Of a stretch of 64,000 bases of DNA, positions 10,301 to 64,000 are shown piece by piece. Position 1 is the stretch's first letter. Each line of letters begins with the position of its first letter. The position numbers and the translations under genes were made by a program. The notes under the pieces are model-generated. The model was given only the letters and a program-made list of their open reading frames with translations, was not told where the DNA came from and did not search any database. The stretch spans positions 2,356,001-2,420,000 of the forward strand of contig NW_026963314.1 of NCBI RefSeq assembly GCF_036588685.1, given 5' to 3'. This stretch comes from Mytilus trossulus (lineage: Eukaryota).

Positions 10301-10890
10301 CTTTTATAGCTGACTATGCGGTATGGGCTTTGCTCGTTGTTGAAGGCCGTATGGTGACCTATAGTTGTTAATATTTGTTTCATTTTGGTCTCTGTGGATA
10401 GTTGTCTCATTGGCAATCATACCACATCTTCTTTTTTTTATTTTATATATGACAATATTTTTACATTGATAAAATTATAGTAAAATATAAAGGAAATCTA
10501 CCAATCTCTGACATTACAGCTATATTACTTGACTTTCTGTTTACACCAAGAATGTATTTCTTAAATTTGGTATGAGCTTTTTCAGAAGAATCCTGACCAG
10601 AAACTTGTTCCTATAGAACGTTATATACTATACTAGATATATATGTATATAATATTCAGACAACAATGGATCCTGTAGACTGCCCAGGGGATCCTGTAGA
10701 ACGTCCTTTAGTGTATACATGATAAACAAACAATATAAGGAATCCTATAGAACGTTCTGTAGTAAATATACAGGGTTCATACAACAGGGGATCATGTAGA
10801 ACGCCCTCACATAGCTTTATTGTAAACAAGTAACAATGGTTCCTATAGAACGTCACGCTATAGTAGAATGGTCAGACAACAGGGGGTCAG
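4330..10890 (-). repeat. Same complex tandem repeat in opposite orientation (core aacaggggatcctgtagaacgccctatagta); right arm, interrupted at ~9920-10610
   Basis: Dozens of motif copies; sub-blocks mirror the order of those in 1-1540. Confidence 0.85.
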
Positions 10891-12053: not shown

Positions 12054-12116
12054 TACAAAGAGCGACAATATTCCAAGATGAAAACTGTCCTTATGATCCT
12101 TGTGGAAACATCCCAG
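12054..12116 (+). CDS. LRR-TM gene A, exon 2 (xQRATIFQDENCPYDPCGNIP)
   Basis: tag|ta...ccag|gtcagt, 63 nt, phase 1-1; matches paralog micro-exon pattern K(K/R)ATxYxxxxCxxxxxC. Confidence 0.8.
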
Positions 12117-18977: not shown

Positions 18978-19726
18978 TAGAACATATAAATTACGCAACA
19001 TTAAAACGACACAAAACCTAAATACATCTATAAATGTATACATCTACAGATCATCATGGCACCCAGGGTCATTTTTTTCACTTTATAAATCAAACAAATA
19101 GAAGGAAAGTGTTCATTGTATTAAATTTATCTTTACCAAATGTTAATTTACATTTTCTAGTTCAAAGTTTCTGAATCTCATCAGTGTATGTGTATGTAAT
19201 AATCTTAGTGTTTGGTCCTTTAAAGAAACAATTAGTACTACTGGTGGCCGTTTGACAAGGGTACTATTCTGGTTCCCTTTTCGAGAGGCAGTTTAAATGC
19301 CCCTCCTTTCATTCTACCCACTTTGCAGAATCCACCTTTATGTTAACAATTTCTCAGGATTAATGTGTTTCTCGTCTTGAATGTATGCCTGAACTTCTAG
19401 TATAATTCAATAACTGGAACAACCACTTTTGTAAAAATAAAATTGAAAATGGAAATGGGAAATGTGTCAAAGAGACAACAACCCGATCATAGAAAACACA
19501 ACAGCAGAAGGTCACCAACAGATCTTCAATATTTGTTTGTGATCATACACAAGTAGGCAGAGCACGTTTAAAGACAATTTTCAAAGATTTATTTACATTT
19601 AACTGTCACAATAGATAGTGTACATTCAACGAGAATAATATAGTGTTTTTATAATGTCTCTGCTACCATCCCTTACGCATGAGCGGAGCTTAGGTCTCTG
19701 CTATCTTCCTTACGCATATGTCTCTG

Positions 19727-19983
19727 CTACCATCCCTTTCGCATGGGCGGAGCCGTCGATGCAGGGGGTCTCTGACCACCCCCACCTCCATGTAGAAGAG
19801 CTTGTTGAACTTTCATCCATGCAATATTCCTCTTTTTCATCAGTCTTTCTCTGTCAGTAATTAGATCTCGTCTAACATGGCATACGATTGCTAAAGCTAA
19901 AGCTCCAATAACTAAGGTAAATAATAGTACTGCATACGCTATAATATTGTATAGAATAAAACATTCCACTCCCCAACGGAAAC
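19727..19983 (-). CDS. LRR-TM gene B, exon 3 (TM + tail ending MRKGW*)
   Basis: tgtattgtag|gt acceptor, 257 nt; TM followed by CHVRR...KKRNIAWMKVQQAL...GQRPP. Confidence 0.9.
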
Positions 19984-20899: not shown

Positions 20900-21700
20900 T
20901 GATACAAGAGTCGGGGATTTTGATGTTTACCTTTGCCCTCCGTGATACAAGTGCAAAAAATAACTGTATGAAGAGATTTAAGTCTTTACTTTTTCCTGCC
21001 CTCTCTGATACAGGGATCAGGAATTATGACTTTTACCTTTGCCCTACGTGATAAGGGATCAGGGATTAAGACTTTTACCTTTGCCCTCCGTGATAAGGGA
21101 TCAGGGAGTAAGACTTTTACCTTTGCCCTCCGTGATAAGGGATCAGGGATTAAGACTTTTACATTTGCCCTCCGTGATAAGGGATCAGAGATAAAGAAGT
21201 TAACCTTTGCCCACCGTGGAAAGGGATCAGGGATGAAGACTTTTACCTTTGCCCTCTGTGATACAAGGATCAGAGATAAAGACGTTTACCTTTGCCCACC
21301 GTGGAAAGGAATCAGGGATTAAGACTTTTACCTTTGCCCTCTGTATTACAAGGATCAGGGATTAAGACTTTTACCTTTGCCCTCTGTGATACAATGATCA
21401 GGGATAAAGACTTAATTGTGCCCTCTCTGATACAAGGATCAGGGATTAAGACGTTTACCTTTGCCCTCTGTGATACAGGGATCAAGAATTATGACTTTTA
21501 CCTTTGCCCTCCGTGATACAGGGATCAGGATTAAGACTTTTATCTTTGCCCTCTGTGATACACGGATCAGGATTAAGACGTTTATATTTGCCCTCCGTGA
21601 TACAGGGATCAGGGATTAAGACTTTTATGTTTGTCCATCGTAATAAGGGATCAGAGATTAAGACTTTTACCTTTGCCCTCCGTGATACAGGGATCAGGGA
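20900..21700 (-). repeat. 42-43 bp tandem array spanning the gene B exon 2 donor (~17-19 units)
   Basis: Minus-strand unit ccctgatccctgtatcacggagggcaaag|gtaaaagtcttaat; first unit is the real exon end. Confidence 0.9.
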
Positions 21701-21739
21701 TTTCACATTCTTTGATGTAGTATTCTTTTCCTGTCCTTT
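21671..21739 (-). CDS. LRR-TM gene B, exon 2 (KRTGKEYYIKECEIPDPCITEGK)
   Basis: ttgacag|aa ... aaag|gtaaaa, 69 nt, phase 1-1, two Cys. Confidence 0.85.
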
Positions 21740-25326: not shown

Positions 25327-26182
25327 ATGGCACTTCTTTTAACCATTCTGATGTTTTGTATCTACAATAGTGATGCAGCAACACCTACCGGATGTACAGG
25401 GGATAGTTCCGATAGCTCTATCATTCATTACACGTGCGACAAGACAAGTATCGGTGGATCTATCAGTTTCGCTGGATTCACAGATTCTGAGCCACAGAGG
25501 CTAACCATCTACAGCGCCAGTGGTACAGTTTCCGCGGGAACATTTAGCGGTTTCAGCGCATTTAGTGGTGTTAACTCTGATTACCCGGCTACCCTTCAGT
25601 TCCTATGTACAGGCTCACTTACGTTTTCTACAGGGACGTTCGGTGATCTCGGGTATTTTGAGGAGGTTTTTATCAAAGATTGTACTACTTCCTTGATTGC
25701 CAGTATGTTTAATAGTCTTGGAACGGCAAACAAAGTATCGATCAGTGGCGGAACACTTTCAACCATTGATGCTGGCACCTTCACAAGCCTCGACATCACA
25801 CCAATATCCACAACAGCAAGTCCAAGAGGAGAATTGAGCATCAAGAACGTAGTACTAACGCCAGGAACATTTCCCTCGACATTCTTTAATCCACTGACGA
25901 ATATTAAATTCATATATTTGGAGAATCTAGGCCTGACATCTGTTGATGCTGCGTGGTTCAGCAGTAACACAGCCCTCGTATATCTGTCTCTGGCTAACAA
26001 TCAGATCACAACACTCCCGAGTACTATGTTTGATACAACATTGGCGTTACTGTATATCAATTTACACGGGGCTCCTTTGGATTGTACAGATACTAGTACC
26101 ACTTGGTATTATGATTACACTGTAGCCAACAACATCACCTTTGACGGAGCAGCTGTCTGTTCCACTCCAGCTGCTGAACAAT
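25327..26182 (+). CDS. LRR-TM gene C, exon 1; spliced product ~380 aa
   Basis: Signal peptide, PTGC cap, LVYLSLANNQITTL LRR; donor caa t|gtaagt; 856 nt. Confidence 0.92.
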
Positions 26183-26826
26183 GTAAGTAATCACTTGGTA
26201 TTATGACTACGCTGTAGCCAATAACATCATTTTTGACGGAGCAGCTGTCTGGTCCACTCCAGCTGCTGAACAATGTACTAATCACTTGGTATTATGACTA
26301 CGCTGTAGCCAACAACATCACTTTTGACGGAGCAGCTGTCTGTTCAACTCCAGCTGCTGAACAATGTAAGTAATCACTTGGTATTATGACTACGCTGTAG
26401 CCAATAACATCACTTTTGACGGAGCAGCTGTCTGGTCCACTCCAGCTGCTGAACAATGTAAGTAATCACTTGGTATTATGACTACGCTGTAGCCAATAAC
26501 ATCACTTTTGACGGAGCAGCTGTCTGGTCCACTCCAGCTGCTGAACAATGTAAGTAATCACTTGGTATTATGACTACGCTGTAGCCAATAACATCACTTT
26601 TGACGGAGCAGCTGTCTGGTCCACTCCAGCTGCTGAACAATGTAAATTATCTCTTGGTATTATGACTATACTGTAGCCAATAACATCACTTTTGATGAAG
26701 CAGTTGTTTGTTTCACTCCGGCTGCTGAACAATGTAAGCTATCACTCTGTATTATGATTACACTGTAGCCAATAACATCACTTTTGTTGAAGCAGCTGTC
26801 ATTTCTAGCCTAAGTGTAAGTAATCA
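26100..26826 (+). repeat. 92-bp tandem array spanning the gene C exon 1 donor (~8 units)
   Basis: Unit starts at 26101, 26193, 26284, 26376, 26468, 26560, 26652, 26744. Confidence 0.95.
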
Positions 26827-27107
26827 AGTGCATAGTGTATAATAGTTTGATTCTGTCAAATGAATTTAGTATTGTGTGGTATTATGTCATTCGTAATAGC
26901 GTAAGTTAATGAGTGTGTCATGTCATAACAATATTCGAAAAACGAATTCAAAGTAATCTTTTTGTCTTTTAAATCTATCAAACAAAGGGTATAACAGTCA
27001 ACGTTAAGCAAACAACAATTAATCAATCAGTATAATTCTGGTGAACAAGATCAATATTGAAGTCAAGGTCATTATGATACTAAAATAACAAAAATAGTGA
27101 TCTTCGA

Positions 27108-27942: not shown

Positions 27943-28925
27943 AATAGTTATCAAAAGTACCAGGATTATAATTTTATACGCCAGACGCGCGTTTCGTCTA
28001 CATAAGACTCATCAGTGACGCTCAGATCAAAATAGTTAAAAAGCCAAACAAATACAAAGTTGAAGAGCATTGATGACCCAAAATTCCAAAAAAGTTTTGC
28101 CAAATACGGCTAAGGTAATCTACTCCTGGGGTAAGAAAATCCTTAGTTTTTCGAAAAATTCAAAGTTTTATAAACAGAAAATTTATAATATGACCATATA
28201 ATTGATATTCATGTCAACACCGAAGTGCTGACTACTGGGCTGGTGATACCCTCGGGGACGAAACGTCAACCAGCAGTGGCATCGACCAGAAATAGAGTTC
28301 ATGTTATTCTGTAGATAATCGGAACCAAAATTTAACATTTGCAGGAACGATTTGGAGACTGAATGCAATTAGTTGCAGAAAAATTATGTTCCAACACATA
28401 TTTCACTAAACATATATTATGATATTAGAACTTTTTGGTATAATGCTCTTCAACTTTGTACTTGTTTGCTTTTATAAATATTTTGATTTGAGCGTCCCAG
28501 ATGAGTCTTATGTAGACGAAACGCGCGTCTAGCGTACTAAATTATAATTCTGGTACTTTTGATAACTATTAACACCACTGGGTCGATGCCACTGCTGGTT
28601 GACGTTTCCTCCCCGAGGGTATCACCAGCCCAGTAGTCAACACTTCGGTGTTGACATGAATATCAATAATGTGGTCATTTTTATAAATTTCCTGTTTACA
28701 AAACTTTGAATTTTTCGAAAAACTAAGGATTTTCTTATCCCAGGCATAGATTACTTTAGGCGTATTTGGCACAACTTTTGGAATTTTGGATCCTCTATGC
28801 TCTTCAACTTGTAATTGACTGTTTGGTTTTATAAAAATTTTGATTTGAACGTCACCGATGAGTCTTATGTACACGAAACGCGCGTCTGGCGTACTAAATT
28901 GTAATCCTGGTACTTTTGATAATTA
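27943..28925. mobile_element. Inverted copies of an interspersed repeat (tatcaaaagtaccagg... family)
   Basis: 27943-28289 forward; 28440-28568 and 28570-28925 reverse; another copy at 34930-35585. Confidence 0.75.
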
Positions 28926-43379: not shown

Positions 43380-43558
43380 ATCCTGTGTAAACAAATAAAC
43401 AATATATCATACATCTGCTACACTCCTGTGTAAACAAATATACAATATATCATACATCTGCTACACTCCTGTGTAAACAGATATACAATATATCATACAT
43501 CTGCTACACTCCTGTGTAAACAAATATACAATATATCATACATCTGCTACACTCCTGT
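43380..43558 (+). repeat. ~43-bp intronic minisatellite, ~4 units
   Basis: tcctgtgtaaacaaatatacaatatatcatacatctgctacac repeated. Confidence 0.9.
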
Positions 43559-44186
43559 TTAATTTAAACTTTCAAAATCATAGTTTAAAAAGTTGGTCAC
43601 GGAAAGAAAAAAGTGAAAAACTATAAAAGGATTCCAATTTTTTTAAATGATCTGAAAACAACAGCCGTCAACACTCCTACGCACAATAATCAATTAACTG
43701 ATACACTCATGTGCTACCATATCTAAAATTAGCAAAAAGATAATTAATGCTGTTTTTTTTCTTTATAATGAATTCATGCATGTGAGATCATATAAAAAAA
43801 GAGAATGTTCAATCAAAGAAAACTAATGTATAAAGAGATGGTGTTGTGCATACCATACGTCAATGAGACAGAAATCTAACAACACATAAAAACAACCGAG
43901 GTCGTAGTAATTGTCTTAAGCATTAGACATGTGTATATATTACAAATCAAAGTGAACATCGTTCAAGTGTAGAAAATAGTGAACATGACTTAAGCAGAAA
44001 AAAGAACAAAGAATCTAGACATTTTCAAGTTTTTTTTTTTAATCTTTACAGACAGCGGCCGGGTTGCTTTTTAGATTTTTTCAGGAGTGATATTTGATAG
44101 TTTACTATTTTTACAATTCATTTTTTTCTTCAAATTAAATCATGCATTGATTGTGTATGCATCTCAAGTGCAATCTGTTATTGTAG

Positions 44187-44971: not shown

Positions 44972-45993
44972 GTATGATATTAGTATACCTTTATGTTTAG
45001 ATATAGCCATTGGATCAACCTGTATGACTGTGTATGTTATCAGTTTACCTTTATGTTTAGATATAGCCATTGGATCCATCTGTATGACTGTGTATGTTAT
45101 CAGTTTACCTTTATGTTTAGATATAGCCATTGGATCCATCTGTATGACTGTGTATGTTATCAGTTTACCTTTATGTTTAGATATAACCATTGGATCAACC
45201 TGTATGACTGTGTATGATATTAGTGTACCTTTATGTTTAGATATAGCCATTGGATCAACCTGTATGACTGTGTATGTTATCAGATTACCTTTATGTTAGA
45301 TATAGCCATTGGATCCATCTGTATGACTGTGTATGTTATTAGTTTACCTTTATGTTAGATATAGCCATTGGATCCATCTGTATGACTGTGTATGATATCA
45401 GTTTACCTTTATGTTTAGATATAGCCATTGGATCCATCTGTATGACTGTGTATGTTATCAGTTTACCTTTATGTTTAGATATAGCCATTGGATCCATCTG
45501 TATGACTGTGTATGATATCAGTTTACCTTTATGTTTAGATATAGCCATTGGATCCATCTGTATGACTGTGTATGTTATCAGTTTACCTTTATGTTTAGAT
45601 ATAACCATTGGATCAACCTGTATGACTGTGTATGATATTAGTGTACCTTTATGTTTAGATATAGCCATTGGATCAACCTGTATGACTGTGTATGTTATCA
45701 GATTACCTTTATGTTAGATATAGCCATTGGATCCATCTGTATGACTGTGTATGTTATTAGTTTACCTTTATGTTAGATATAGCCATTGGATCAACCTGTA
45801 TGACTGTGTTTGATATCAGTTTACCTTTATGTTTAGATATAGCCATTGGATCAACCTGTATGACTGTGTATGATATTAGTTTACCTTTATGTTTAGATAT
45901 AGCCATTGGATCAACCTGTATGACTGTGTATGATATCAGTTTACCTTTATGTTTAGATATAGCCATTGGATCAACCTGTATGACTGTGTATGA
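44972..45993 (+). repeat. 60-bp tandem array spanning the gene F exon 3 acceptor (17 acceptor copies)
   Basis: Unit ...ttacctttatgtttag|atatagccattggatcaacctgtatgactgtgtatg; four 59-bp variants. Confidence 0.95.
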
Positions 45994-46207: not shown

Positions 46208-47008
46208 GATCTTAAGTGACTGCATGGATCGATAGGTGTCAGTGGAACGACATGGACTAATCGAAACTATATGTTTTTATTTGATATAAAGTAAAAGGAA
46301 ATAAATCATGTATTTTAACTATAATATGTAATTATATAGTATGGTTTTTAAAATTAACGTAAATACCCGTTATAGAATTTTGTTTTCCAAAATTAGAAAA
46401 GTCTCACACGTGGTCAAGATCCCAAAATTAACGCACATATTTAAATATCAAACATAAAAAGGGTCGAAAAATACCAAAGGGGCATTTAAGGGCATTCGAT
46501 ACAGTTTCTATCTCATGATGATTTTTTTACAAAAATTTACATACGAGCTATGTTTTACCCAAGTGTTTGAAGCATTTAATAAAAGATATACCTTCATATT
46601 TGCAACTTATTTCCGAAAATGGTAAACGTGTTATGTTGTTATTGACATTTTCTCTACCTTTTTATTACATTTATTAGTTTTAAAATGTGATCTTAAAACT
46701 GGCGCTCATGGGCAAATAACACCATTTCTAAAATCTAGAAAGAAAGCAGCGAAAGATATTAGAATCACACCCAAACAAAGAAAAACAAAATGAGGTTACA
46801 ATTAATTACATTATAAACAAACCAAAAACAAAATGAGGTTACAATTAATTACATTATAAACAAGACCAAAAACAGAAAAAAATCATAATGAAATTACAAC
46901 TAATGACATTATTAACAAAACCATAACAGAGAAAAACATAATGAGATTACAACTAATAACATTTACAACAACTCAAAACAGGTTATGGGACAACAGTTGT
47001 CAGGACAA

Positions 47009-48495
47009 ACAACCACAATCATTCTCTCCTTGTCGGCCTAGTATCAACAACCACAATCATTCTCTCTTTGTCGGCCTAATATCAACAACCACGATCATTC
47101 TCTCCTTGTCGGCCTAATATCAACAACCACACTCATTCTCTCCTTGTCGGCCTAGTATCAACAACCACAATCATTCTCTCCTTGTCGGACTAATATCAAC
47201 AACCACAATCATTCTCTCCTTGTCGGCCTAATATCAACAACCACAATCATTCTCTCCTTGTCGGCCTAATATCAACAACCACAATCATTTTCTCCTTGTC
47301 GGCCTTATATCAACAACCATAATCATTCTCTCCTTGTCGGCTTAATATCAACAACCACAATCATTCTCTCCTTGTCGGCCTAATATCAACAACCACAATC
47401 ATTCTCTCCTTGTCGGCCTTATATCAACAACCACAATCATTCTCTCCTTGTCGGCCTAATATCAACAACCACAATCATTCTCTCCTTGTCGGCCTTATAT
47501 CAACAACCACAATCATTCTCTCCTTGTCGGCTTAATATCAACAACCACAATCATTCTCTCCTTGTCGGCCTAATATCAACAACCACAATCATTCTCTCCT
47601 TGTCGGCCTAATATCAACAACCACAATCATTCTCTCCTTGTCGGCCTTATATCAACAACCACAATCATTCTCTCCTTGTCGGCCTTATATCAACAACCAC
47701 AATCATTCTCTCCTTGTCGGCCTTATATCAACAACCACAAACATTCTCTCCTTGTCGGCCTAATATCAACAACCACAATCATTCTCTCCTTGTCGGCCTA
47801 ATATCAACAACCACAATCATTCTCTCCTTGTCGGCCTTATATCAACAACCACAATCATTCTCTCCTTGTCGGCCTAATATCAACAACCACAATCATCCTC
47901 TCCTTGTCGGCCTAATATCAACAACCACAATCATTTTCTCCTTGTCGGCCTTATATCAACAACCATAATCATTCTCTCCTTGTCGGCTTAATATCAACAA
48001 CCAACAACCACACTCATTCTCTCCTTGTCGGCCTTATATCAACAACCACAATCATTTTCTCCTTGTCGGCCTAATATCAACAACCACAAACATTCTCTCC
48101 TTGTCGGCCTAATATCAACAAACACAATCATTCTCTCCTTGTCGGCCTAATATCAACAACCACAATCATTCTCTCCGTGTCGGCCTAATATCAACAACCA
48201 CAATCATTCTCTCCTTGTCGGCCTCATATCAACAACCACAATCATTCTCTCCTTGTCGGCCTTATATCAACAACCACAATCATTCTCTCCTTGTCGGCCT
48301 AATATCAACAACCACACTCATTCTCTCCTTGTCGGCTTATATCAACAACCACAATCATTTTCTCCTTGTCGGCCTTATATCAACAACCACAATCATTCTC
48401 TCCTTGTCGGCTTATATCAACAACCACAATCATTTTCTCCTTGTCGGCTTATATCAACAACCACAATCATTTTCTCCTTGTCGGCCTAATAACAA
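47009..48495 (+). repeat. 38-bp minisatellite, ~39 units, intergenic
   Basis: caaccacaatcattctctccttgtcggcctaatatcaa repeated. Confidence 0.95.
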
Positions 48496-51400
48496 CACGT
48501 ACAGAGTTATCAAAAGTACCAGGATTATACTTTTATACAGTCAGTGTTCCTAACACTCAGAACTGATAGACATGCAATATTGCTGAAATCCGTTTCATTT
48601 GAACTACTTTGGAAAGTTGTTTCATTGGCAATATAACAAAATCTGCTTATATTTTATATGAAAGTCAAAACATTTAAAAGGTCCCTGATAGCCATATTAG
48701 GTAGAGTCACAAAAACAACGCAGCTTTAACTTGTTAAGGACAATTGATGACCCTTCCCCCTCGAACTCGAAAAACGATTAAACAAATATCTGTACATGTA
48801 TATATCTATCAATGGTATACTTCTAAGATAAAACTGCAAAATTACATTGTCTGTCAAATACTTGAAATGTCTCCTTGTTTTGCCAATATTTAATCCAAAT
48901 GTTGCTCTATAATTATTGTTTTGTTCAAATATCATTAACAGTCGGAAACCAGGTTGAAATAGAGCAAAAGAATCGAACTATTTATTAGAGAAGGCGATAA
49001 AAGTTTACTGTATTGTTTACTATAGTGACCAGTTTTTTAAAAGTTAATAGAACCAAACAAAATTGCAATTTTCTTCTCAATAACGAGGTGTTTTATTTTA
49101 AAAACACTATTTGCAATTTATTTAGTACATAGTTAAGCAGAACAATTAGATATCAAGTCGACGACATGCGTATTTTTCAAGTTGGATGAAGAAAATGCAT
49201 AACCTCCGATTTTTTCTGAAAAAATTATCACGGACGGAAAACATATCAATCTAATAGTTCAGTAATTTTCCTGTCTGCCCTTCCATTATGTGACTGAGAA
49301 AAAATTCCAAAAAATAGGTAACAATTGTATCGAAAAGAGAAAATCGAGTGCGACTTTTTATGTTAGGGCGTGTTTGAGTTGATTATTTTGTCTTGATATC
49401 GTACAAAGTAAGAATATTTCATACATCATCTCGCTTTAGATTCTATTATTTTCATATATTTAAGCTTCAGGTTGACTTTATAACACAAAAAATAACAGTA
49501 CTAAAAGATGAAATATATGGGCCAAGTGAAATACCTATCTAATGAGTCACAAAAACAGAGAAGGTGTGTTCGAATAGCTATTTGTTTTACTGAAAGTACT
49601 TGACGACAGTCTTACAAGTTGGATGATGAAAATGCATATCTTCGAAAAATTCTAATTTTTTGTATGTGATAACTAGGGTTTATAGTCTTCATACACTAAA
49701 AAAAAATGTAGTCTGCCCTTTCACGAAATATTTAATTAGATTTTTTTTAAATGTTTATGAATTTTCGAAAATTCCACCTGACAACCGATCAGACAATAGT
49801 TTTAAGTTGAATCAATGCAGACAAGATCATTAACTGATGCTCATTAGCTAGTTGATACATTTGTCTTTTACAATGCAACTGACATATGAGGATCGTACTG
49901 GTGCAATGTGGATAAATTTATCGGTTTCCAAGAGCAAAATTGGTAGCGCGTCATCCCTACAATGGCTTCCATTTCTACGATTGTGAAGATGAACTGGCGT
50001 AATGGGGAGATAATTTTGACGAAGTAGGATCCTGACTGTAAGGGCCTGATAATTCTCTTTGTCGGTTAACATTTAAAAAATGTTAAGTGTCTGTGCATGA
50101 ATCAATATATAAAAAAAGAATTGGTATGATTGCCAATGAGACAACTATCCACAAAAGACCAAAATGACACAAACATTAACATTTATAGGTCACCATACGG
50201 CCTTCAACAATGAACAAAGCCCATACCGCTTTGTCAGCTATTTCTTGTTTGAATTGTTTTACATGGTCTTATTGGGGCCTTTTATAGCTGACTATGTGGT
50301 ATTGGGTATACTCATTGTTCTAGGCCGTACGGTGACCTAAAGTTGTTAAATGTCTGCGTCATTTTGGTCTCTTGTGGACAGTTGTCTCATTTGCAATCAT
50401 ACCACATCTTCTTTTTTATATTATAAGGATTGTTACGTTTTATAATAACGTTACTCTTTATATTGCTGATCATTCTTGCAATCAAATTGAAAGTTTTAAC
50501 TTTTAGTGGAAAAGGCTTTATTTCAGGGGTAATAACTCAGGTTTACTGATTTTTCTAACATTTATAGGTAAATGTCGTGCTGAAGATTTTTCAATTTGCA
50601 CTTTAAATGCAGATAACGCTAACATTCAAAAACTGAAAAAAGATGTTGTTTAACGGACAAATAAAACATACTCAAAGATATGTCAACGGATTTTTATTAC
50701 TTTGCAATTCAAGGCATCTGCATTATGTATTCTGTGTCCTTTCTGCCAATATACGCACACCTTCAGAATGAAGTCAAGAATATCATTTCACCAGTAGAAT
50801 GTTATAGATTAAAAGTATCCAACCACCAATAGAATATGTATAACGATGTACACTATTTACAATTGTCGGTATATATCTCTACACCAATATCTCACACGTT
50901 CTCGTCTATAAAATTTAGAAATGAGTCCTTAGATAGCATGAAATTTGCAGTCCACACAACCATTTTCTTAAATAAAACTGTGATCTTAAATCACTTTTTT
51001 CTATATCTTTTCTGCATCTTGTTCTGCTGGTGTTTTTTTGGGTGTTTTATACGTTTATCATACCTCCTTTAGTTTTCAGTCAACAACTGTTTTAAATTGA
51101 AAAAATATATATATATAAAAAAGAAGATGTGGTATGATTGCCAATAAGATAACTCTCCAAAAGTTACCATAATGACACATAAATTAACAGCTTTAATCAG
51201 TCACCGTATGGCCTTCAACAATGATCAAAGCCCATACCAGATAGTCAGCTATAAAAGACACCGAAGTGACAATGTAAAACAATTCAAACGAGAAAAACTA
51301 ACTGCCTTATTTACAAAAAAAAATAAGCCTTTATAGCCACAATAAGACATCCAACTGTAGGGCTTTAGCTAAAACTCCGTTGCATCTTCTTTCCGCTCTT

Positions 51401-52264
51401 TAATTTAAATAAGCCTTTCTGATTAATATGAAAGGATTTATGAAGGGGAACCTTTTCAATAGACATACATGACTGATACTGTAGTCATCCTTATTGCAAA
51501 CTGTTTGCAATATAGATAATTATTAAGTTAGAAATACAGCAAATTCTGTCAATCTGCAAAAAATACTTAGTACATGTATCAATCATTCGAGAAAAACGTT
51601 TGAGCTGAAGATAACTACAAAAAAAGTTATACACTTGGTAAGATTTCAAATGTCACAATTATCTTTAAAAGACAAACAGACTATTGAATGTAACTTTTAA
51701 AAGACAAACATGACACAACATAGAAAACTAAAGACTTAATGCAAATTGCGTGTAACGAATTGGCGAACACAGAGACTCAGAGCGTCTGCATTTTGCGATC
51801 TTCTAATCAAATCCCCCACTTTTTCAACTTCAGTACTGTAATGCCATACATACTTTTGAAATAACTTTAATGTGATTTAATAACAATGAATAACAACTCA
51901 TAGTCATAACTAGAATGTATTATACCTAAACAGACCATTTTCGACATAAGGAGTTTATCTACTTAAACATTTTAGTGTACATGAAAAACTACAATTATTT
52001 AAAATTAATTCTGAAACAACACGATTCTATTGTTTATTTAATCTCTTGTATTGAGGTGTATTTTTTAATAAATATTATCTTTTGACCTTATTATTAAGAA
52101 TTACTCTAATTTTACCACTGTGCCAATATTTCACTTAATCGGATTTAGTTGGATTTATGTGTATTTTATACCTTAACCTTTAAAGAAATGAATGTATAAT
52201 AATTGCTTTCAATATGGCGGAATATTTCCTCAGAAGATAGTAAGATAATTTAATAACAAAAACA

Positions 52265-53141
52265 ATGGGTCTACATTTGTGTTTTCTGTTTGTTATATAT
52301 GTTTTGTCATCAGTATCTGGGGACCCTACCGGTTGTTCATATGATGCATCGACAATTTTATTCACCTGTAACGCAAGAAGTTGGAGTTTGCCTCTTGTAT
52401 TTTCTGACTTTACAACTGCGCAGCCGCAAAGACTGATGCTGAAAGATGTTGATGGAGAAATCTCAGCAAGTGCACCAAATGGACCAGCATTTTCTGGATT
52501 CAGTAGTATTAACACTGCAACTTTTGACCCAGACTATGCGCCAGCCCTATATATCATGTGTTATTTCGGAGGGCAGTTAATTTTGGACAAAGACGCGTTT
52601 GCCGATTTCAGTTACGTTGAAGAAGTCAAAATCCTAAATTGTGATATTCTATCCATTCCAGTTGAAGCATTCTCTTACTTTGGAGATGTCAATCTATTCC
52701 ACATTCAAGGCGGATCCATTTCTAATATGGTGGCTGATAGTTTCAAAAATCTGAACGTAAATCGAATGACAACAGTACCGAATCCAAAGGGAGAGTTCGC
52801 AATTATTAACTCAGAGCTGACTTCCGGTGCATTGGCATTCGGAGCATTGTTTAATATGCCAAACATTGAACGTGTGCTGATTGAAAACGCTCACCTATCA
52901 ACAGTAACATCCGACATGTTCTATGCTTTATCAAAGTTAAATTATGCTTCCCTGAACTATAACACGTTTACAACCATCCCGAACAACATGTTTGCCAATG
53001 TCTTTGGCCTTGCCTCAGTAGATATGTATGGCATCAGCTGGGACTGTTCCTGTGACAACCTCTGGTTCTTAGACTATTTATCAGAGAACAATATCACTAT
53101 GAATGGCGACATAGTCTGTAGCACGCCTGTTGATTACGAAC
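52265..53141 (+). CDS. LRR-TM gene G, exon 1
   Basis: Signal peptide, PTGCSYD cap, LNYASLNYNTFTTI LRR, WDCSCDNLW; donor gaa c|gtaagt; 877 nt. Confidence 0.92.
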
Positions 53142-56100
53142 GTAAGTGATATTGTATGTAGAACTCCTGTACAAAACGTACGTAAGTGACATTGTCTATA
53201 GTACTTCTGTTGATTACGAACTAGGTGACATTTTTCTGAAGCACTACTATTGATAACAAACGTAAGTGACATGGTCTATAAGACTCCTGTTGATTACGAA
53301 CGTAAGTGTCGTTGTATGCAGCACTCCTGTTGATTACGAACGTAAGTGTCATTGTATGCAGCACTCCTGTTGATTACGAACGTAAGTGACATTGTATGTA
53401 GCACTCCTGTTGACTACGAACGTAAGTGACATTGTATGTAGCACTCCTGTTGATTACGAACGTTAGTGTCATTGTATGTAGCACTCCTGTTGACTACGAA
53501 CGTTAGTGACATTGTATGTAGCACTCCTGTTGATTACGAACGTAAGTGTCATTGTATGCAGCACTCCTGTTGACTACGAACGTAAGTGACATTGTATGTA
53601 GCACTCCTGTTGATTACGAACGTAAGTGTCATTGTATGTAGCACTCCTGTTGATTACGAACGTAAGTGTCATTGTATGTAGAACTCCTGTTGACTACGAA
53701 CGTAAGTGACATTGTATGTAGCACTCTTGATGATTACGAACGTGAGTGACATTGTATGTAGCACTCCTGTTGATTACGAACGTAAGTGTCATTGTATGCA
53801 GCACTCCTGTTGATTACGAACGTTAGTGTCATTGTATGTAGCACTCCTGTTGACTACGAATGTTAGTGACATTGTATGTAGTACTCTTGTTGATTACGAA
53901 CGTAAGTGTCATTGTATGTAGCACTCATGTTGATTACGAACGTAAGTGTCATTGTATGTAGCACTCCTGTTGATTACGAACGTAAGTGTCATTGTATGTA
54001 GCACTCCTGTTGATTACGAACGTAAGTGACATTGTATATAGCACTCCTGTTGACTACGAACGTAAGTGACATTGTCGGTAGAACTCCTGTTGACTACGAA
54101 CGTGAGTGACATTGTATGTAGCACTCCTGTTGATTACGAACGTAAGTGTCATTGTATGTATCACTCCTGTTGATTACGAACGTAAGTGACATTGTATATA
54201 GCACTCCTGTTGACTACGAACGTAAGTGACATTGTCGGTAGAACTCCTGTTGACTACGAACGTGAGTGACATTGTATGTAGCACTCCTGTTGATTACGAA
54301 CGTAAGTGTCATTGTATGTAGCACTCCTGTTGATTACGAACGTAAGTGACATTGTATGTAGCACTCTTGATGATTACGAACGTAAGTGACATTGTATGTA
54401 GCACTCCTGTTGACTACGAACGTAAGTGACATTGTATGTAGCACTCCTGTTGATTACGAACGTAAGTGTCATTGTATGTAGCACTCCTGTTGATTACGAA
54501 CGTAAGTGACATTGTATGTAGCACTCTTGATGATTACGAACGTAAGTGACATTGTATGTAGCACTCCTGTTGATTACGAACGTAAGTGTCATTGTATGTA
54601 GCACTCCTGTTGATTACGAACGTAAGTGTCATTGTATGTAGCACTCTTGATGATTACGAACGTAAGTGACATTGTATGTAGCACTCCTGTTGACTACGAA
54701 CGTAAGTGACATTGTATGTAGCACTCCTGTTGATTACGAACGTAAGTGACATTGTATATAGCACTCCTGTTTACTACGAACGTAAGTGTCATTGTATGTA
54801 GCACTCCTGTTGATTACGAACGTAAGTGACATTGTATATAGCACTCCTGTTGATTACGAACGTAAGTGACATTGTATGTAGCACTCTTGATGATTACGAA
54901 CGTAAGTGTTATTGTATGTAGCACTCCTGTTGATTACGAACGTAAGTGACATTGTATATAGCACTCCTGTTGACTACGAACGTAAGTGACATTGTCGGTA
55001 GAACTCCGGTTGACTACGAACGTGAGTGACATTGTATGTAGCACTCCTGTTGATTACGAACGTAAGTGTCATTGTATGTAGCACTCTTGATGATTACGAA
55101 CGTAAGTGACATTGTATGTAGAACTCATGTTGACTACGAACGTAAGTGACATTGTATGTAGAACTCCTGTTGACTACGAACGTAAGTGACATTGTATGTA
55201 GCACTCTTGATGATTACGAACGTGAGTGACATTGTATGTAGCACTCCTGTTGATTACGAACGTAAGTGACATTGTATGTAGCACTCTTGATGATTACGAA
55301 CGTTAGTGACATTGTATGTAGCACTCCTGTTGATTACGAACGTAAGTGACATTGTATGTAGCACTCCTGTTGATTACGAACGTTAGTGACATTGTCGGTA
55401 GAACTCCTGTTGACTACGAACGTAAGTGACATTATATGTAGCACTCTTGATGATTACGAACGTAAGTGACATTGTATGTAGAACTCATGTTGACTACGAA
55501 CGTAAGTGACATTGTATGTAGAACTCCTGTTGACTACGAACGTAAGTGACATTGTATGTAGCACTCTTGATGATTACGAACGTGAGTGACATTGTATGTA
55601 GAACTCCTGTTGATTACGAACGTAATTGTCATTGTATGTAGCACTCCTGTTGATTACGAACGTAAGTGACATTGTATGTAGCACTCTTGATGATTACGAA
55701 CGTTAGTGACATTGTATGTAGAACTCATGTTGACTACGAACGTAAGTGACATTGTATGTAGAACTCCTGTTGATTACGAACGTGAGTGACATTGTATGTA
55801 GAACTCCTGTTGACTACGAACGTAAGTGACATTGTATGTAGCACTCCTGTTGATTACGAACGTAAGTGACATTGTATGTAGAACTCCTGTTGACTACGAA
55901 CGTAAGTGACATTGTATGTAGCACTCCTGTTGATTACGAACGTAAGTGTTATTGTATGTAGAACTCCTGTTGACTACGAACGTAAGTGACATTGTATGTA
56001 GAACTCCTGTTGATTACGAACGTAAGTGACATTGTATGTAGAACTCCTGTTGACTACGAACGTAAGTGACATTATATGTAGCACTCCTGTTGATTACGAA

Positions 56101-59100
56101 CGTAAGTGTCATTGTATGTATCACTCCTGTTGACTACGAACGTAAGTGTCATTGTATGCAGCACTCCTGTTGACTACGAACGTAAGTGACATTGTATGTA
56201 GCACTCCTGTTGATTACAAACGTAAGTGACATTGTATGCAGCACTCCTGTTGACTACGAACGTAAGTGACATTGTATGCAGCACTCCTGTTGACTACGAA
56301 CGTAAGTGACATTGTTTGTAGAACTCCTGTTGATTACGATCGTGAGTGTCATTGTATGTAGCACTCCTGTTGATTACGAACGTAAGTGTCATTGTATGTA
56401 GCACTCCTGTTGATTACGAACGTAAGTGACATTGTATGTAGCACTCTTGATGATTACGAACGTGAGTGACATTGTATGTAGAACTCCTGTTGATTACGAA
56501 CGTAAGTGACATTGTATGTAGAACTCCTGTTGACTACGAACGTAAGTGACATTGTATGTAGCACTCTTGATGATTACGAACGGGAGTGACATTGTATGTA
56601 GCACTCCTGTTGATTACGAATGTAAGTGACATTGTATGTAGCACTCTTGATGATTACGAACGTTAGTGACATTGTATGTAGCACTCCTGTTGATTACGAA
56701 CGTAAGTGACATTGTATGTAGCACTCCTGTTGATTACGAACGTTAGTGACATTGTCGGTAGAACTCCTGTTGACTACGAACGTAAGTGACATTGTATGTA
56801 GCACTCTTGATGATTACGAACGTAAGTGACATTGTATGTAGAACTCCTGTTGACTACGAACGTAAGTGACATTGTATGTAGCACTCCTGTTGATTACGAA
56901 CGTAAGTGTTATTGTATGTAGAACTCCTGTTGACCACGAACGTAAGTGACATTGTATGTAGAACTCCTGTTGATTACGAACGTAAGTGACATTGTATGTA
57001 GAACTCCTGTTGACTACGAACGTAAGTGACATTATATGTAGCACTCCTGTTGATTACGAACGTAAGTGACATTGTATGTAGAACTCCTGTTGACTACGAA
57101 CGTAAGTGACATTGTATGTAGCACTCCTGTTGATTACGAACGTAAGTGTCATTGTATGTAGCACTCCTGCTGATTACGAACGTAAGTGTCATTGTATGCA
57201 GCACTCCTGTTGACTACGAACGTAAGTGACATTGTATGTAGCACTCCTGTTGATTACGAACGTAAGTGACATTGTATGCAGCACTCCTGTTGACTACGAA
57301 CGTAAGTGACATTGTATGCAGCACTCCTGTTGACTACGAACGTAAGTGACATTGTTTGTAGAACTCCTGTTGATAACGATCGTGAGTGTCATTGTATGTA
57401 GCACTCCTGTTGATTACGAACGTAAGTGTCATTGTATGTAGCACTCCTGTTGATTACGAACGTAAGTGACATTGTATGCAGCACTCCTGTTGATTACGAA
57501 CGTAAGTGTCATTGTATGTAGCACTCCTGTTGACTACGAACGTAAGTGACATTGTATGTAGCACTCCTGTTGATTACGAACGTAAGTGTTATTGTATGTA
57601 GAACTCCTGTTGACTACGAACGTAAGTGACATTGTATGTAGAACTCCTGTTGATTACGAACGTAAGTGACATTGTATGTAGAACTCCTGTTGACTACGAA
57701 CGTAAGTGACATTATATGTAGCACTCCTGTTGATTACGAACGTAAGTGTCATTGTATGTAGCACTCCTGCTGATTACGAACGTAAGTGTCATTGTATGCA
57801 GCACTCCTGTTGACTACGAACGTAAGTGACATTGTATGTAGCACTCCTGTTGATTACGAACGTAAGTGACATTGTATGCAGCACTCCTGTTGACTACGAA
57901 CGTAAGTGACATTGTATGCAGCACTCCTGTTGACTACGAACGTAAGTGACATTGTTTGTAGAACTCCTGTTGATTACGATCGTGAGTGTCATTGTATGTA
58001 GCACTCCTGTTGATTACGAACGTAAGTGTCATTGTATGTAGCACTCCTGTTGATTACGAACGTAAGTGACATTGTATGTAGCACTCTTGATGATTACGAA
58101 CGTGAGTGACATTGTATGTAGAACTCCTGTTGATTACGAACGTAAGTGACATTGTATGTAGAACTCCTGTTGACTACGAACGTAAGTGACATTGTATGTA
58201 GCACTCTTGATGATTACGAACGTGAGTGACATTGTATGTAGCACTCCTGTTGATTACGAACGTAAGTGACATTGTATGTAGCACTCTTGATGATTACGAA
58301 CGTTAGTGACATTGTATGTAGCACTCCTGTTGATTACGAACGTAAGTGACATTGTATGTAGCACTCCTGTTGATTACGAACGTTAGTGACATTGTCGGTA
58401 GAACTCCTGTTGACTACGAACGTAAGTGACATTGTATGTAGCACTCTTGATTATTACGAACGTAAGTGACATTGTATGTAGAACTCCTGTTGACTACGAA
58501 CGTAAGTGACATTGTATGTAGCACTCCTGTTGATTACGAACGTAAGTGTTATTGTATGTAGAACTCCTGTTGACCACGAACGTAAGTGACATTGTATGTA
58601 GAACTCCCGTTGATTACGAACGTAAGTGACATTGTATGTAGAACTCCTGTTGACTACGAACGTAAGTGACATTATATGTAGCACTCCTGTTGATTACGAA
58701 CGTAAGTGACATTGTATGTAGAACTCCTGTTGACTACGAACGTAAGTGACATTGTATGTAGCACTCCTGTTGATTACGAACGTAAGTGTCATTGTATGTA
58801 GCACTCCTGCTGATTACGAACGTAAGTGTCATTGTATGCAGCACTCCTGTTGACTACGAACGTAAGTGACATTGTATGTAGCACTCCTGTTGATTACGAA
58901 CGTAAGTGACATTGTATGCAGCACTCCTGTTGACTACGAACGTAAGTGACATTGTATGCAGCACTCCTGTTGACTACGAACGTAAGTGACATTGTTTGTA
59001 GAACTCCTGTTGATTACGATCGTGAGTGTCATTGTATGTAGCACTCCTGTTGATTACGAACGTAAGTGTCATTGTATGTAGCACTCCTGTTGATTACGAA

Positions 59101-62100
59101 CGTAAGTGACATTGTATGCAGCATTCCTGTTGATTACGAACGTAAGTGTCATTGTATGTAGCACTCCTGTTGACTACGAACGTAAGTGACATTGTATGTA
59201 GCACTCCTGTTGATTACGAACGTAAGTGTCATTGTATGTAGCACTCCTGTTGATTACGAACGTAAGTGACATTGTATATAGCACTCCTGTTGACTACGAA
59301 CGTAAGTGACATTGTCGGTGGAACTCCGGTTGACTACGAACGTGAGTGACATTGTATGTAGCACTCCTGTTGATTACGAACGTAAGTGACATTGTATATA
59401 GCACTCCTGTTTACTACGAACGTAAGTGTCATTGTATGTAGCACTCCTGTTGATTACGAACGTAATTGTCATTGTATGTAGCACTCCTGTTGATTACGAA
59501 CGTAAGTGACATTGTATGTAGAACTCCTGTTGACTACGAACGTAAGTGACATTGTATGCAGCACTCCTGTTGACTACGAACGTAAGTGACATTGTTTGTA
59601 GAACTCCTGTTGATTACGATCGTGAGTGTCATTGTATGTAGCACTCCTGTTGATTACGAACGTAAGTGTCATTGTATGTAGCACTCCTGTTGATTACGAA
59701 CGTAAGTGACATTGTATGTAGCACTCTTGATGATTACGAACGTGAGTGACATTGTATGTAGAACTCCTGTTGATTACGAACGTAAGTGACATTGTATGTA
59801 GAACTCCTGTTGACTACGAACGTAAGTGACATTGTATGTAGCACTCTTGATGATTACGAACGTGAGTGACATTGTATGTAGCACTCCTGTTGATTACGAA
59901 CGTAAGTGACATTGTATGTAGCACTCTTGATGATTACGAACGTTAGTGACATTGTATGTAGCACTCCTGTTGATTACGAACGTAAGTGACATTGTATGTA
60001 GCACTCCTGTTGATTACGAACGTTAGTGACATTGTCGGTAGAACTCCTGTTGACTACGAACGTAAGTGACATTGTATGTAGCACTCTTGATTATTACGAA
60101 CGTAAGTGACATTGTATGTAGAACTCCTGTTGACTACGAACGTAAGTGACATTGTATGTAGCACTCCTGTTGATTACGAACGTAAGTGTTATTGTATGTA
60201 GAACTCCTGTTGACCACGAACGTAAGTGACATTGTATGTAGAACTCCCGTTGATTACGAACGTAAGTGACATTGTATGTAGAACTCCTGTTGACTACGAA
60301 CGTAAGTGACATTATATGTAGCACTCCTGTTGATTACGAACGTAAGTGACATTGTATGTAGAACTCCTGTTGACTACGAACGTAAGTGACATTGTATGTA
60401 GCACTCCTGTTGATTACGAACGTAAGTGTCATTGTATGTAGCACTCCTGCTGATTACGAACGTAAGTGTCATTGTATGCAGCACTCCTGTTGACTACGAA
60501 CGTAAGTGACATTGTATGTAGCACTCCTGTTGATTACGAACGTAAGTGACATTGTATGCAGCACTCCTGTTGACTACGAACGTAAGTGACATTGTATGCA
60601 GCACTCCTGTTGACTACGAACGTAAGTGACATTGTTTGTAGAACTCCTGTTGATTACGATCGTGAGTGTCATTGTATGTAGCACTCCTGTTGATTACGAA
60701 CGTAAGTGTCATTGTATGTAGCACTCCTGTTGATTACGAACGTAAGTGACATTGTATGCAGCATTCCTGTTGATTACGAACGTAAGTGTCATTGTATGTA
60801 GCACTCCTGTTGACTACGAACGTAAGTGACATTGTATGTAGCACTCCTGTTGATTACGAACGTAAGTGTCATTGTATGTAGCACTCCTGTTGATTACGAA
60901 CGTAAGTGACATTGTATATAGCACTCCTGTTGACTACGAACGTAAGTGACATTGTCGGTGGAACTCCGGTTGACTACGAACGTGAGTGACATTGTATGTA
61001 GCACTCCTGTTGATTACGAACGTAAGTGACATTGTATATAGCACTCCTGTTTACTACGAACGTAAGTGTCATTGTATGTAGCACTCCTGTTGATTACGAA
61101 CGTAAGTGACATTGTATATAGCACTCCTGTTTACTACGAACGTAAGTGTCATTGTATGTAGCACTCCTGTTGATTACGAACGTAAGTGACATTGTATATA
61201 GAACTCCTGTTGACTACGAACGTAAGTGACATTGTATGTAGCACTCTTGATGATTACGAACGTGAGTGACATTGTATGTAGAACTCATGTTGACTACGAA
61301 CGTAAGTGACATTGTATGTAGAACTCCTGTTGATTACGAACGTGAGTGACATTGTATGTAGAACTCCTGTTGATTACGAACGTAATTGTCATTGTATGTA
61401 GCACTCCTGTTGATTACGAACGTAAGTGACATTGTATGTAGAACTCCTGTTGACTACGAACGTAAGTGACATTGTATGTAGCACTCTTGATGATTACGAA
61501 CGTGAGTGACATTGTATGTAGAACTCATGTTGACTACGAACGTAAGTGACATTGTATGTAGAACTCCTGTTGATTACGAACGTGAGTGACATTGTATGTA
61601 GAACTCCTGTTGATTACGAACGTAATTGTCATTGTATGTAGCACTCCTGTTGATTACGAACGTAAGTGACATTGTATGTAGAACTCCTGTTGACTACGAA
61701 CGTAAGTGACATTGTATGTAGCACTCCTGTTGATTACGAACGTAAGTGTTATTGTATGTAGCACTCTTGATGATTACGAACGTAAGTGACATTGTATGTA
61801 GAACTCTTGTTGACTACGAACGTAAGTGACATTGCATGTAGCACTCCTGTTGATTACGAACGTAAGTGTCATTGTATGTAGCACTCCTGTTGATTACGAA
61901 CGTAAGTGACATTGTATGTAGCACTCCTGTTGATTACGAACGTAAGTGTCATTGTATGCAGCACTCCTGTTGACTACGAACGTAAGTGACATTGTATGTA
62001 GCACTCCTGTTGATTACGAACGTAAGTGACATTGTATGCAGCACTCCTGTTGACTACGAACGTAAGTGACATTGTATGCAGCACTCCTGTTGACTACGAA

Positions 62101-62571
62101 CGTAAGTGACATTGTTTGTAGAACTCCTGTTGATTACGATCGTGAGTGTCATTGTATGCAGCACTCCTGTTGATTACGAACGTAAGTGTCATTGTATGTA
62201 GCACTCCTGTTGACTACGAACGTAAGTGACATTGTATGTAGCACTCCTGTTGATTACGAACGTAAGTGTCATTGTATGTAGCACTCCTGTTGACTACGAA
62301 CGTAAGTGACATTGTATGCAGCACTCCTGTTGATTACGAACGTAAGTGACATTGTATGTAGCACTCTTGATGATTACGAACGTAAGTGTCATTGTATGCA
62401 GCACTCCTGTTGACTACGAACGTAAGTGACATTGTATGTAGCACTCCTGTTGATTACGAACGTAAGTGTCATTGTATGTAGCACTCCTGTTGATTACGAA
62501 CGTAAGTGTCATTGTATGTAGCACTCCTGTTGATTACGAACGTAAGTGACATTGTTAGTAGCACTCCTGTT
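53108..62571 (+). repeat. 40-bp satellite (~236 units) spanning the gene G exon 1 donor
   Basis: Unit gacattgtatgtagcactcctgttgattacgaac|gtaagt; register kept from 53141 to 62541 (235 x 40). Confidence 0.97.
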
Positions 62572-62869
62572 ATTTACTTAAGTATGTTTTCAAAGTTGTT
62601 TTGGTACTTTCTTGTATTTTACGGCTAAGTATGTGTTGAACCATACATTTGATTTTAAGCACACATTAGAGAAAAAATGGATCTATATTCAACAAGGAAA
62701 TAATTTACCTTAACGCATATTGATATAGATACACATTATCAATCTGATAATACATTATGGTCAGCACACGGGTCTTACTTGACGCAGTAATCATGAGTAA
62801 TACGGTATTGTGCATGTACATACATAGCCACTGTTGATAAAATATGTCATCGCTACTTTTCTCTTTCAG

Positions 62870-62935
62870 ATAAACGTGCCACAAAATACAACTTGGACAC
62901 GTGTGTGACAGATGGGGTGTGTGGTAAAATAACAG
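62870..62935 (+). CDS. LRR-TM gene G, exon 2 (HKRATKYNLDTCVTDGVCGKIT)
   Basis: ctctttcag|at ... acag|gtaaag, 66 nt, phase 1-1. Confidence 0.92.
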
Positions 62936-63396
62936 GTAAAGTCTATGGGTTCTATAAATTTTAATACAAGCAGATTTAAGGTATATACCAATAGTACAAA
63001 AACCCAACAACAAAATGACATAACTAGGTCAAAATATTCTAAAACAGTGCTTGCAAGACTAAAAACTAGTTAAGAACTATTTCAACGAAGCAAGAAAACA
63101 GGATGAAAGATTAAAAAAGACATCAGTCTCTTAAACAGATGTAAGCAGCCAAAAAAAACAGACAAAATATAAGTAAAAACGATTGGACATGACAATAATG
63201 TTGATGATAAAACAGAAGCTAATCCACGATTTGATTTTGATTGATTGGGTCGGGTCTCGTAGATATCTATATTCTAACAAAATCATCGCAGAAATTTTAC
63301 CTTCCAGTTACTTTTGCTGAATCTTTTAGGTGGAAGGCGCCAGGTGTGCTCCCGTCTGAATAAATGTTTGTATAATTATATTCAATAACGTGGAAC

Positions 63397-64000
63397 TATG
63401 TCGGTACTTGCAATATATTGTTTTCTACAAACACTCAGATACATTTTGTTTTTACTAGGTATTGCTATTGGTAGTATGTCGGTACTTGTAATATATTGTT
63501 TTCTACAAACTCTCAGATACATTTTGTTTTTTTATACTAGGTATTGCTATTGGTAGTATGTCGGTACTTGTAATATATTGTTTTCTACAAACACTCAGAT
63601 ACATTTTGTTTTTACTAGGTATTGCTATTGGTAGTATGTCGGTACTTGTAATATATTGTTTTCTACAAACTCTCAGATACATTTTGTTTTTTTATACTAG
63701 GTATTGCTATAGCTAGTATGTCGGTACTTGTAATATATTGTTTTCTACAAACTCTCAGATACATTTTGTTCTTTAATACTAGGTATTGCTATAGCTAGTA
63801 TGTCGGTACTTGTAATATATCGTTTTCTACAAACTCTCAGATACATTTTGTTTTTACTAGGTATTGCTATTGGTAGTATGTCGGTACTTGTAATATATTG
63901 TTTTCTACAAACTCTCAGATACATTTTGTTTTTTTATACTAGGTATTGCTATTGGTAGTATGTCGGTACTTGTAATATATTGTTTTCTACAAACACTCAG
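63397..64000 (+). repeat. 78/82-bp tandem array spanning the probable gene G exon 3 acceptor; runs off window end
   Basis: ttttgtttttactag|gtattgctattggtagt encodes GIAIGS (cf. F DIAIGS); copies start at 63459, 63541, 63619, 63701, 63783, 63861, 63943. Confidence 0.85.

Follow-up and report, generated by a model that had tools for sequence, protein, structure and literature searches.

In a window of the Mytilus trossulus genome (the whole stretch analysed, 64,000 nucleotides of contig NW_026963314.1), we found that the first intron of a gene with a leucine-rich repeat (LRR) region, here called gene G, is almost filled by a 40-bp tandem array, each unit of which joins the end of exon 1 to the first six bases of the intron. 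We consider it probable that this array is a tandem amplification of the exon 1-intron 1 junction, a minisatellite of the kind called a "mirage", and that it is tolerated rather than functional. It is likely to be tolerated since splicing takes place at the first donor, and the remaining 236 copies would leave with the intron. The locus is a natural large-scale test of 5' splice-site choice, with 217 consensus-type donors 40 nt apart, of which apparently only the first is used, in an animal whose alleles vary.

The junction array of gene G

The features of gene G that concern the array are as follows.

52265..53141, plus strand: coding part of exon 1, with a signal-peptide-like N-terminus, an LRR region and a cysteine cap
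53142-62869, plus strand: intron 1, 9728 nt
53142..53147, plus strand: authentic 5' donor of intron 1, C/GTAAGT, phase 1, placed by the exit of an RNA-run contig (X5, see below) to exon 2 and by protein models
53148..53307, plus strand: units 2-5, the diverged left edge of the array, with 5-8 differences each from the core consensus and the donor of unit 3 lost
53308..62547, plus strand: units 6-236, the homogenised core, with a mean pairwise difference of 3.04 of 40
62548..62587, plus strand: unit 237, the diverged right edge, with 8 differences and ending GTATGT
62870-62935, plus strand: exon 2, 66 nt, phase 1 on both sides, matched by the loose end of the X5 contig

The array extends over 53108-62587 as 237 head-to-tail units of 40 bp, 236 of which stand in register from 53108, while the 237th, ending at 62587, is degenerate (Tandem Repeats Finder, TRF, places the end at 62571 and gives a period of 80). 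Intron 1 is occupied by the array over 9446 of its 9728 nt (97.1%), in agreement with the initial annotation, which had described about 236 copies filling about 97% of the intron; 282 nt of unique intron follow unit 237. As had also been proposed there, each unit combines the 34 nt that close exon 1, which encode DIVCSTPVDYE and leave one base over, with donor positions +1 to +6, an anatomy that holds in 236 units, and the last 34 nt of the exon itself belong to unit 1. Among the donor hexamers of these 236 units, GTAAGT predominates (192), followed by the two variants already named, GTGAGT (25) and GTTAGT (13), and by GTAATT (4), GGGAGT (1) and one broken site in unit 3. GT is thus retained in 234 of 236 units, and 217 carry GT[AG]AGT, each matching 6-8 of the 11 donor-consensus positions. 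The claim that the array contains no net indel holds for the sum, which is zero, but not unit by unit, since unit 3 has lost 1 nt and unit 4 has gained one. Read-through past donor 1 gives ...DYERK* (asterisk, stop codon) as predicted. [quoted passage not shown]

The terminal unit 1 is the authentic junction, most but not all of the other units keep the splice signal, and the core is homogenised with the edge units excluded, a pattern of concerted evolution; all of this is as in a mirage. There are 59 distinct sequences among the 237 units. The core (units 6-236) carries 32 variant alleles, 6 of them singletons, and shows no variant at 15 of 40 positions; it is built of nested higher-order duplications, the largest being an exact block of 38 units (1520 bp) at a 41-unit offset. 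The core consensus differs from the exon at three sites, all synonymous (chance 0.008), and the states of the edge units indicate that two of these differences (positions 6 and 18) are most simply exon-side and one array-side. No copies of the unit were found elsewhere in the 64-kb window.

Gene G has three coding exons, as do the adjoining paralogs, and relatives of it are present in other mussels, oysters and scallops. The protein encoded by its exon 1 equals that of M. trossulus XP_063418407.1 (P0032) at 292/292 residues. Since P0032 has Pfam matches to LRR_8 and LRR_5 and, by inspection, a hydrophobic stretch in exon 3, the product is likely to be a single-pass membrane LRR protein. Exons 1 and 2 are intact, as previously stated: their joint translation ends ...DYEHKRATKYNLDTCVTDGVCGKIT, as in the 414-aa Mytilus proteins P0002 and P0032-P0035, and of six full-length models of gene G that were retrieved, five splice from donor 1 to exon 2.

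Four of 24 listed sequencing runs (X1, X5, X7 and X16) were examined over 52108-53307, all as contigs. From the RNA run X5, a contig of 1171 nt covers exon 1 from 52244, aligns as far as 53145 and then continues into exon 2. Its loose end matches exon 2 in 27 of 30 letters. The alignment overruns 53141 by four bases because the donor resembles the start of exon 2; the splice is therefore 53141/62870. Use of donors beyond 53142, which had been raised as a possibility, finds no support in this sole RNA-run contig, and X5 gives no cover on units 2-5 (53148-53307). The contig, in which rare isoforms would be invisible, weakly suggests that regular splicing is undisturbed and that donor 1 is used. 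A side observation concerns the alleles of this animal: X5 and the window differ at three synonymous sites in 30 nt of exon 2 (62874-62903) and by about 1% in exon 1, which may be read as a sign of deeply diverged or mosaic alleles.

In all three DNA runs (X1, X7 and X16), contigs cover units 2-5 and array-type contigs are present. In X16, a single contig extends from 52661 across the donor and reaches 53168, inside unit 2, and in this run the F5, R6, V7 and A17 changes of the edulis and galloprovincialis proteins are found on all of the depth. X7 carries two alleles, one like that of the window and the other marked by the I124 and I144 changes of P0035. In addition, X7 and X16 contain unit variants and edge units absent from the window, in contigs that give no copy number. 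Since the array occurs in three DNA runs, one of them with an edulis/galloprovincialis-type exon allele, it is real, it is common, with its decayed edge, to divergent allele types, and it probably predates the split of these species. These Mytilus species separated about 3.5 million years ago. Introgression could make the array younger than the species split.

Arrays at other junctions and their origin

Six paralogs are represented in the window by an exon-1 reading frame, and a seventh gene by its last two exons (exons 2 and 3 at 12054 and 15459), its exon 1 not having been found in the window. Arrays are carried by 5 of the 27 junctions of this cluster, two of them in gene G. Besides the array described above, these are the following.

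63397..64000, plus strand: second array of gene G, on the exon-3 acceptor side, in 78/82-bp units made of the end of intron 2, AG and the first ~18 nt of exon 3
26100..26830, plus strand: paralog at 25327, homologous exon-1 donor, ~8 copies of 92 bp
20997..21702, minus strand: minus-strand paralog, exon-2 donor, ~17 copies of 41-44 bp, with decayed copies to ~20440
44972..45992, plus strand: paralog at 41858, exon-3 acceptor, 17 copies of 59/60 bp, of which the final one is the authentic acceptor

The acceptor array of gene G offers at least 7 decoy acceptors and runs off the window, the authentic exon 3 lying beyond 64000; its units begin GIAIGS, like exon 3 of P0032. In the paralog at 41858, the 60-bp acceptor units are in frame and free of stops, and splicing to an acceptor further upstream would lengthen the protein by 20 residues for each unit, up to the point where a 59-bp unit breaks the frame. 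Such junction arrays can mislead gene prediction and short-read assembly. The larger question is why arrays sit on splice junctions, and the cluster provides five independent cases among 27 junctions.

We counted 11 non-redundant arrays in the window (period of at least 19, at least 3 copies), after dropping two-copy rows, overlapping TRF rows, a ~2.5-copy repeat at 46773 and a microsatellite. Five of the 11 span a junction, against 0.42-0.50 expected (P 2e-5 to 5e-5). With a null confined to introns, 5 of 8 arrays lie on a junction against 0.76 expected (P=3e-4), and when the index array in intron 1 of gene G was removed, the enrichment persisted (P 3e-4 to 2e-3). A probe test covered 26 junctions, the 27th lying beyond the window, and was positive for 4/26 junctions and 15/1073 controls (P=8e-4), or 29/1087 controls (P=6e-3), that is, for 1.4-2.7% of controls; without the index array it was positive for 3/25 junctions (P=0.007, or 0.03 with the other control count). 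The search for further decayed junction copies was negative, the remaining 22 of the 26 junction probes all scoring below 30. Two other arrays, 38-bp x 39 (47008-48497) and 43-bp x 4 (43381-43562), were considered as minus-strand acceptors on account of a pyrimidine tract followed by AG; no gene anchors them, and they were counted as non-junction. A short duplication around the stop codon of the minus-strand paralog (19668-19727) was also scored as a control match in the probe test.

The excess of junction arrays over the chance expectation points to a junction-biased origin or retention of arrays in the cluster. It might instead be a chance by-product of frequent, position-blind tandem duplication combined with tolerance, with no junction-biased process at work, an explanation that competes with the junction-origin step alone. 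The window is indeed repeat-rich (70 TRF rows) and was chosen for one such array. On the other hand, the excess survives both the removal of the index array and the intron-only null, donor and acceptor sides are both affected, and two paralogs have been hit at the homologous donor with units of 40 and 92 bp, lengths that bear no relation to each other. We therefore regard position-blind duplication as unlikely, though it keeps appreciable weight.

For amplification of the gene G junction itself, the following course is suggested. One 40-bp duplication across the donor would have produced unit 2, leaving the unit anatomy described above. Unequal exchange would then have amplified and homogenised the core and stranded the diverged edges, which is the pattern seen. 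The array would by now be old: the edulis/galloprovincialis-type exon allele continues into unit 2, and the exon appears to have changed since at two synonymous sites at which edge units keep the older base. In splicing, the 5'-most donor would win, as was shown experimentally in human F7 and as one contig indicates here, and a small leak to later donors would give transcripts that meet the stop in ...ERK* and are probably degraded by nonsense-mediated decay (NMD).

As to why junctions should be duplicated at all, the likeliest cause in our view would be repair or recombination between alleles that starts in a conserved exon, meets unalignable intron and re-anneals a few tens of bases upstream. 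The junction would thereby be duplicated. Such a copy could survive, the gene being kept intact by its first donor or its last acceptor, and unequal exchange could then enlarge it; loss by deletion may also be rarer in arrays anchored to an exon, which would so survive longer. In M. galloprovincialis, 1.73% heterozygosity and 36.78% hemizygous sequence have been reported (PMC7653742), so that exons would form islands of homology between alleles.

In its widest form, the proposal is that a process in mussels duplicates exon edges where conserved exon meets unalignable intron, and that the arrays so formed are kept across species, exchange sequence with the end of the exon and now and then give rise to new exons. 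In its favour are the 5 array-bearing junctions among 27, a contig of X1 with four differences and a 57-residue copy in the M. edulis model P0026; we put it forward tentatively, and think it rather doubtful as a whole. In X1, two contigs (depth 5.68 and 4.73) both start at 53083 in exon context, and the long exon contig ends at 53112. One of the two equals the window and the other differs at four positions up to 53138 (last 26 nt); its differences begin at 53113, the first position that distinguishes array consensus from exon, and the exact X1 pattern occurs in 31 of 231 core units. This suggests an allele with array-type or ancestral bases at the coding end, which may have arisen by exchange between array and exon, at a depth below 5 and with a joint of the same depth elsewhere in the output. 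In P0026 (XP_071147182.1), the last 57 residues of exon 1 are repeated in frame (~293-349) with one change, and this copy is absent from the window. In-frame copies of this kind are predicted by the intron-gain model for mirages (PMC3087553). The duplicate is possibly an independent, longer duplication at the same donor that was exonised, and it may equally be a prediction or assembly artefact. A P0026-type duplication was not seen as a break in X7 and X16 contigs through 52874-53143, although contigs do not prove absence. If a process of exon-edge duplication does operate, mirages would offer highly heterozygous marine invertebrates in general, and not lancelets alone, a way to evolve exon ends and to gain introns.

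The window also contains blocks of a diverged 119-bp satellite (4-1345 and 4374-9874, in opposite orientations, with scattered copies near 10640-10890). In the paralog at 25327, intron 2 holds an interspersed element in two related copies (27956-28290 and 28436-28920), and a related piece lies near 34950.

Selection, function and true length of the array

Within the core, variation is as free at the donor positions as elsewhere in the unit. Of the 32 variant alleles, 4 fall in donor positions +1 to +6 against 4.8 expected (P=0.46), which shows no excess of conservation, and the donor GT carries 1 variant allele against 1.6 expected; 8 of 40 adjacent position pairs are as invariant as GT, and 13 of 40 six-base windows have as few variants. 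This test has little power against weak selection and shows no trend. Selection on the donors was rejected, and the conservation of GT beyond expectation that had been envisaged is not borne out. Selection on the encoded peptide was considered, all three consensus differences from the exon being synonymous, and was likewise rejected: core polymorphism is without synonymous bias (8 of 27 alleles synonymous against 5.5 expected, P=0.16), the peptide is kept in 62 of 231 core units, and two of the three differences are most simply exon-side. RNA structure that hides donors was not supported by comparison with shuffled sequences, in which neither the core (z=+1.22) nor the real donor (z=-0.09) folds better, and no Rfam structured RNA family reached the gathering score in 51500-64000.

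A neutral origin could still be followed by an effect of array length on splicing, as in human ABCA7. The effect could be exerted through a small leak to later donors, whose product would be cut short by a premature stop or would be a secreted 294-aa ectodomain that lacks the membrane anchor; in-frame skipping of exon 2 is the other route. In ABCA7, the variable number tandem repeat (VNTR) includes the exon-18 donor; an isoform that retains one unit is reported at 2 +/- 1%, the next exon is skipped more as the repeat grows longer, and an allele of 9711 bp has been described (PMC5954066). In gene G, 217 consensus-type donors are available and exon 2 lies between two arrays; its length of 66 nt is a multiple of 3, so that skipping would keep the frame. 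Nevertheless, the unit-retention isoform of ABCA7 was reported to be independent of length (PMC5954066), the pseudo-sites of F7 do not compete with the upstream site (PMC1557585), the X5 contig includes both exon 2 and donor 1, and the donor positions are not conserved. We consider a length-dependent modifier of this type improbable; among the functional explanations, ABCA7-like skipping of exon 2 is the best.

The array might also be real but much shorter, its 9.4 kb having been inflated by assembly. The exact recurrence of the 38-unit block 41 units further on means that assembly could account for part of the length, and altogether 3520 of the 9240 bases of the core lie in stretches of >=200 bp that copy an earlier part of the core exactly, among them the 1520 bp mentioned above. 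Against a much shorter array stand the 59 distinct units of 237 with nested duplications at many offsets, and the small number of singleton alleles (6) together with diverged edges, as in real arrays. Furthermore, summed contig depth at unit 1 far exceeds that of the exon (11808 against ~38 in X7, 409 against 8 in X1, and 598 against 71 in X16), a quantity that is not a copy number, as the tool itself warns, and was not used as such. We judge it quite improbable that inflation accounts for most of the length.

A mammalian cell holds a pool of about one million U1 particles. The remaining idea, that the donors titrate the U1 small nuclear ribonucleoprotein (snRNP) or shield the intron from premature polyadenylation and were selected for it, has on its side the 217 GT[AG]AGT sites with their 6-8 matched consensus positions and the retention of GT in 234 of 236 units, but we regard it as very improbable: GT retention is expected from the low variant count (15 of 40 positions invariant); the ~4300 sites of 20 nascent transcripts amount to 0.4% of the mammalian pool, from which that of the mussel may differ; and neither AATAAA nor ATTAAA occurs in the 9728-nt intron 1, where two weak variants lie in the unique tail, so that there is no canonical polyadenylation signal for U1 to mask. 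The functional effects suggested in the initial annotation (U1 sequestration, suppression of intronic polyadenylation and attenuation of expression by NMD) thus find no support.

Several points weigh against a tolerated mirage that arose by amplification of the junction. The RNA evidence consists of one contig, and its run, the single one of this kind, was recognised as RNA by the splice itself; contigs drop rare isoforms, NMD would hide them, and the array of the X5 animal may differ in length from that of the window. The 57 extra residues of P0026 indicate that splicing or structure is not uniform in all assemblies. The core consensus appears to lie one change from the founding unit and the edge units 5-8, which leaves the core closer to the exon than plain drift suggests, and persistence of the array across alleles and probably species is allowed but not required by drift. 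The junction enrichment is post hoc and comes from one window with non-independent probes. No microhomology beyond a few bases was evident at unit boundaries, which speaks against re-annealing between alleles. Taken together with the anatomy, the use of the first donor and the freely varying donor positions, these points leave tolerated amplification of the junction as the probable explanation.

Comparison with known junction repeats

The gene G array is a large case of a known class of repeats, which includes the mirages of amphioxus and the donor repeats of human F7 and ABCA7. The amphioxus Adh3 mirage is reportedly unstable in somatic cells. A report of junction arrays from a mollusc, Mytilus or any bivalve was not found in the literature searched, which leaves out most subscription journals.

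Amphioxus mirages have been described in the globins BflGb6 and BflGb9, in Adh3, in troponin C and in PGBD5 (PMC3087553, PMC3902484). They resemble gene G in that the unit spans the exon-intron boundary, donor and acceptor sides are both represented, the signals are kept in many units, regular splicing is unaffected, and concerted evolution excludes the edge units; a homogenised core with stranded edges was reported for BflGb6 (PMC3087553). The origin of the amphioxus mirages is stated as unclear in the source paper. Gene G differs in copy number (237 copies against 3-6 in BflGb6), in belonging to a mollusc, in the five arrays of its paralog cluster and in the sharing of the array across Mytilus allele types.

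In intron 7 of human F7 (IVS7), a 37-bp VNTR presents identical donors of which only the most upstream is used (PMC1557585). As in gene G, the first unit contains the authentic donor and is followed by near-identical pseudo-donors. In F7 the exon is internal, the sites number 5-9 and there is proof from mutations, whereas gene G has 217 consensus-type sites at what is apparently a first exon, and one contig as RNA evidence. The 25-bp VNTR in intron 18 of ABCA7 (PMC5954066) likewise includes the donor, and use of the next donor leads to a premature stop; its expanded allele of 9711 bp is similar in size to the gene G array. The ABCA7 unit is described as starting at the GT, whereas 34 of the 40 nt of the gene G unit are coding exon. 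An effect of length on splicing has been demonstrated for ABCA7 (PMC5954066), whereas in gene G it is hypothetical.

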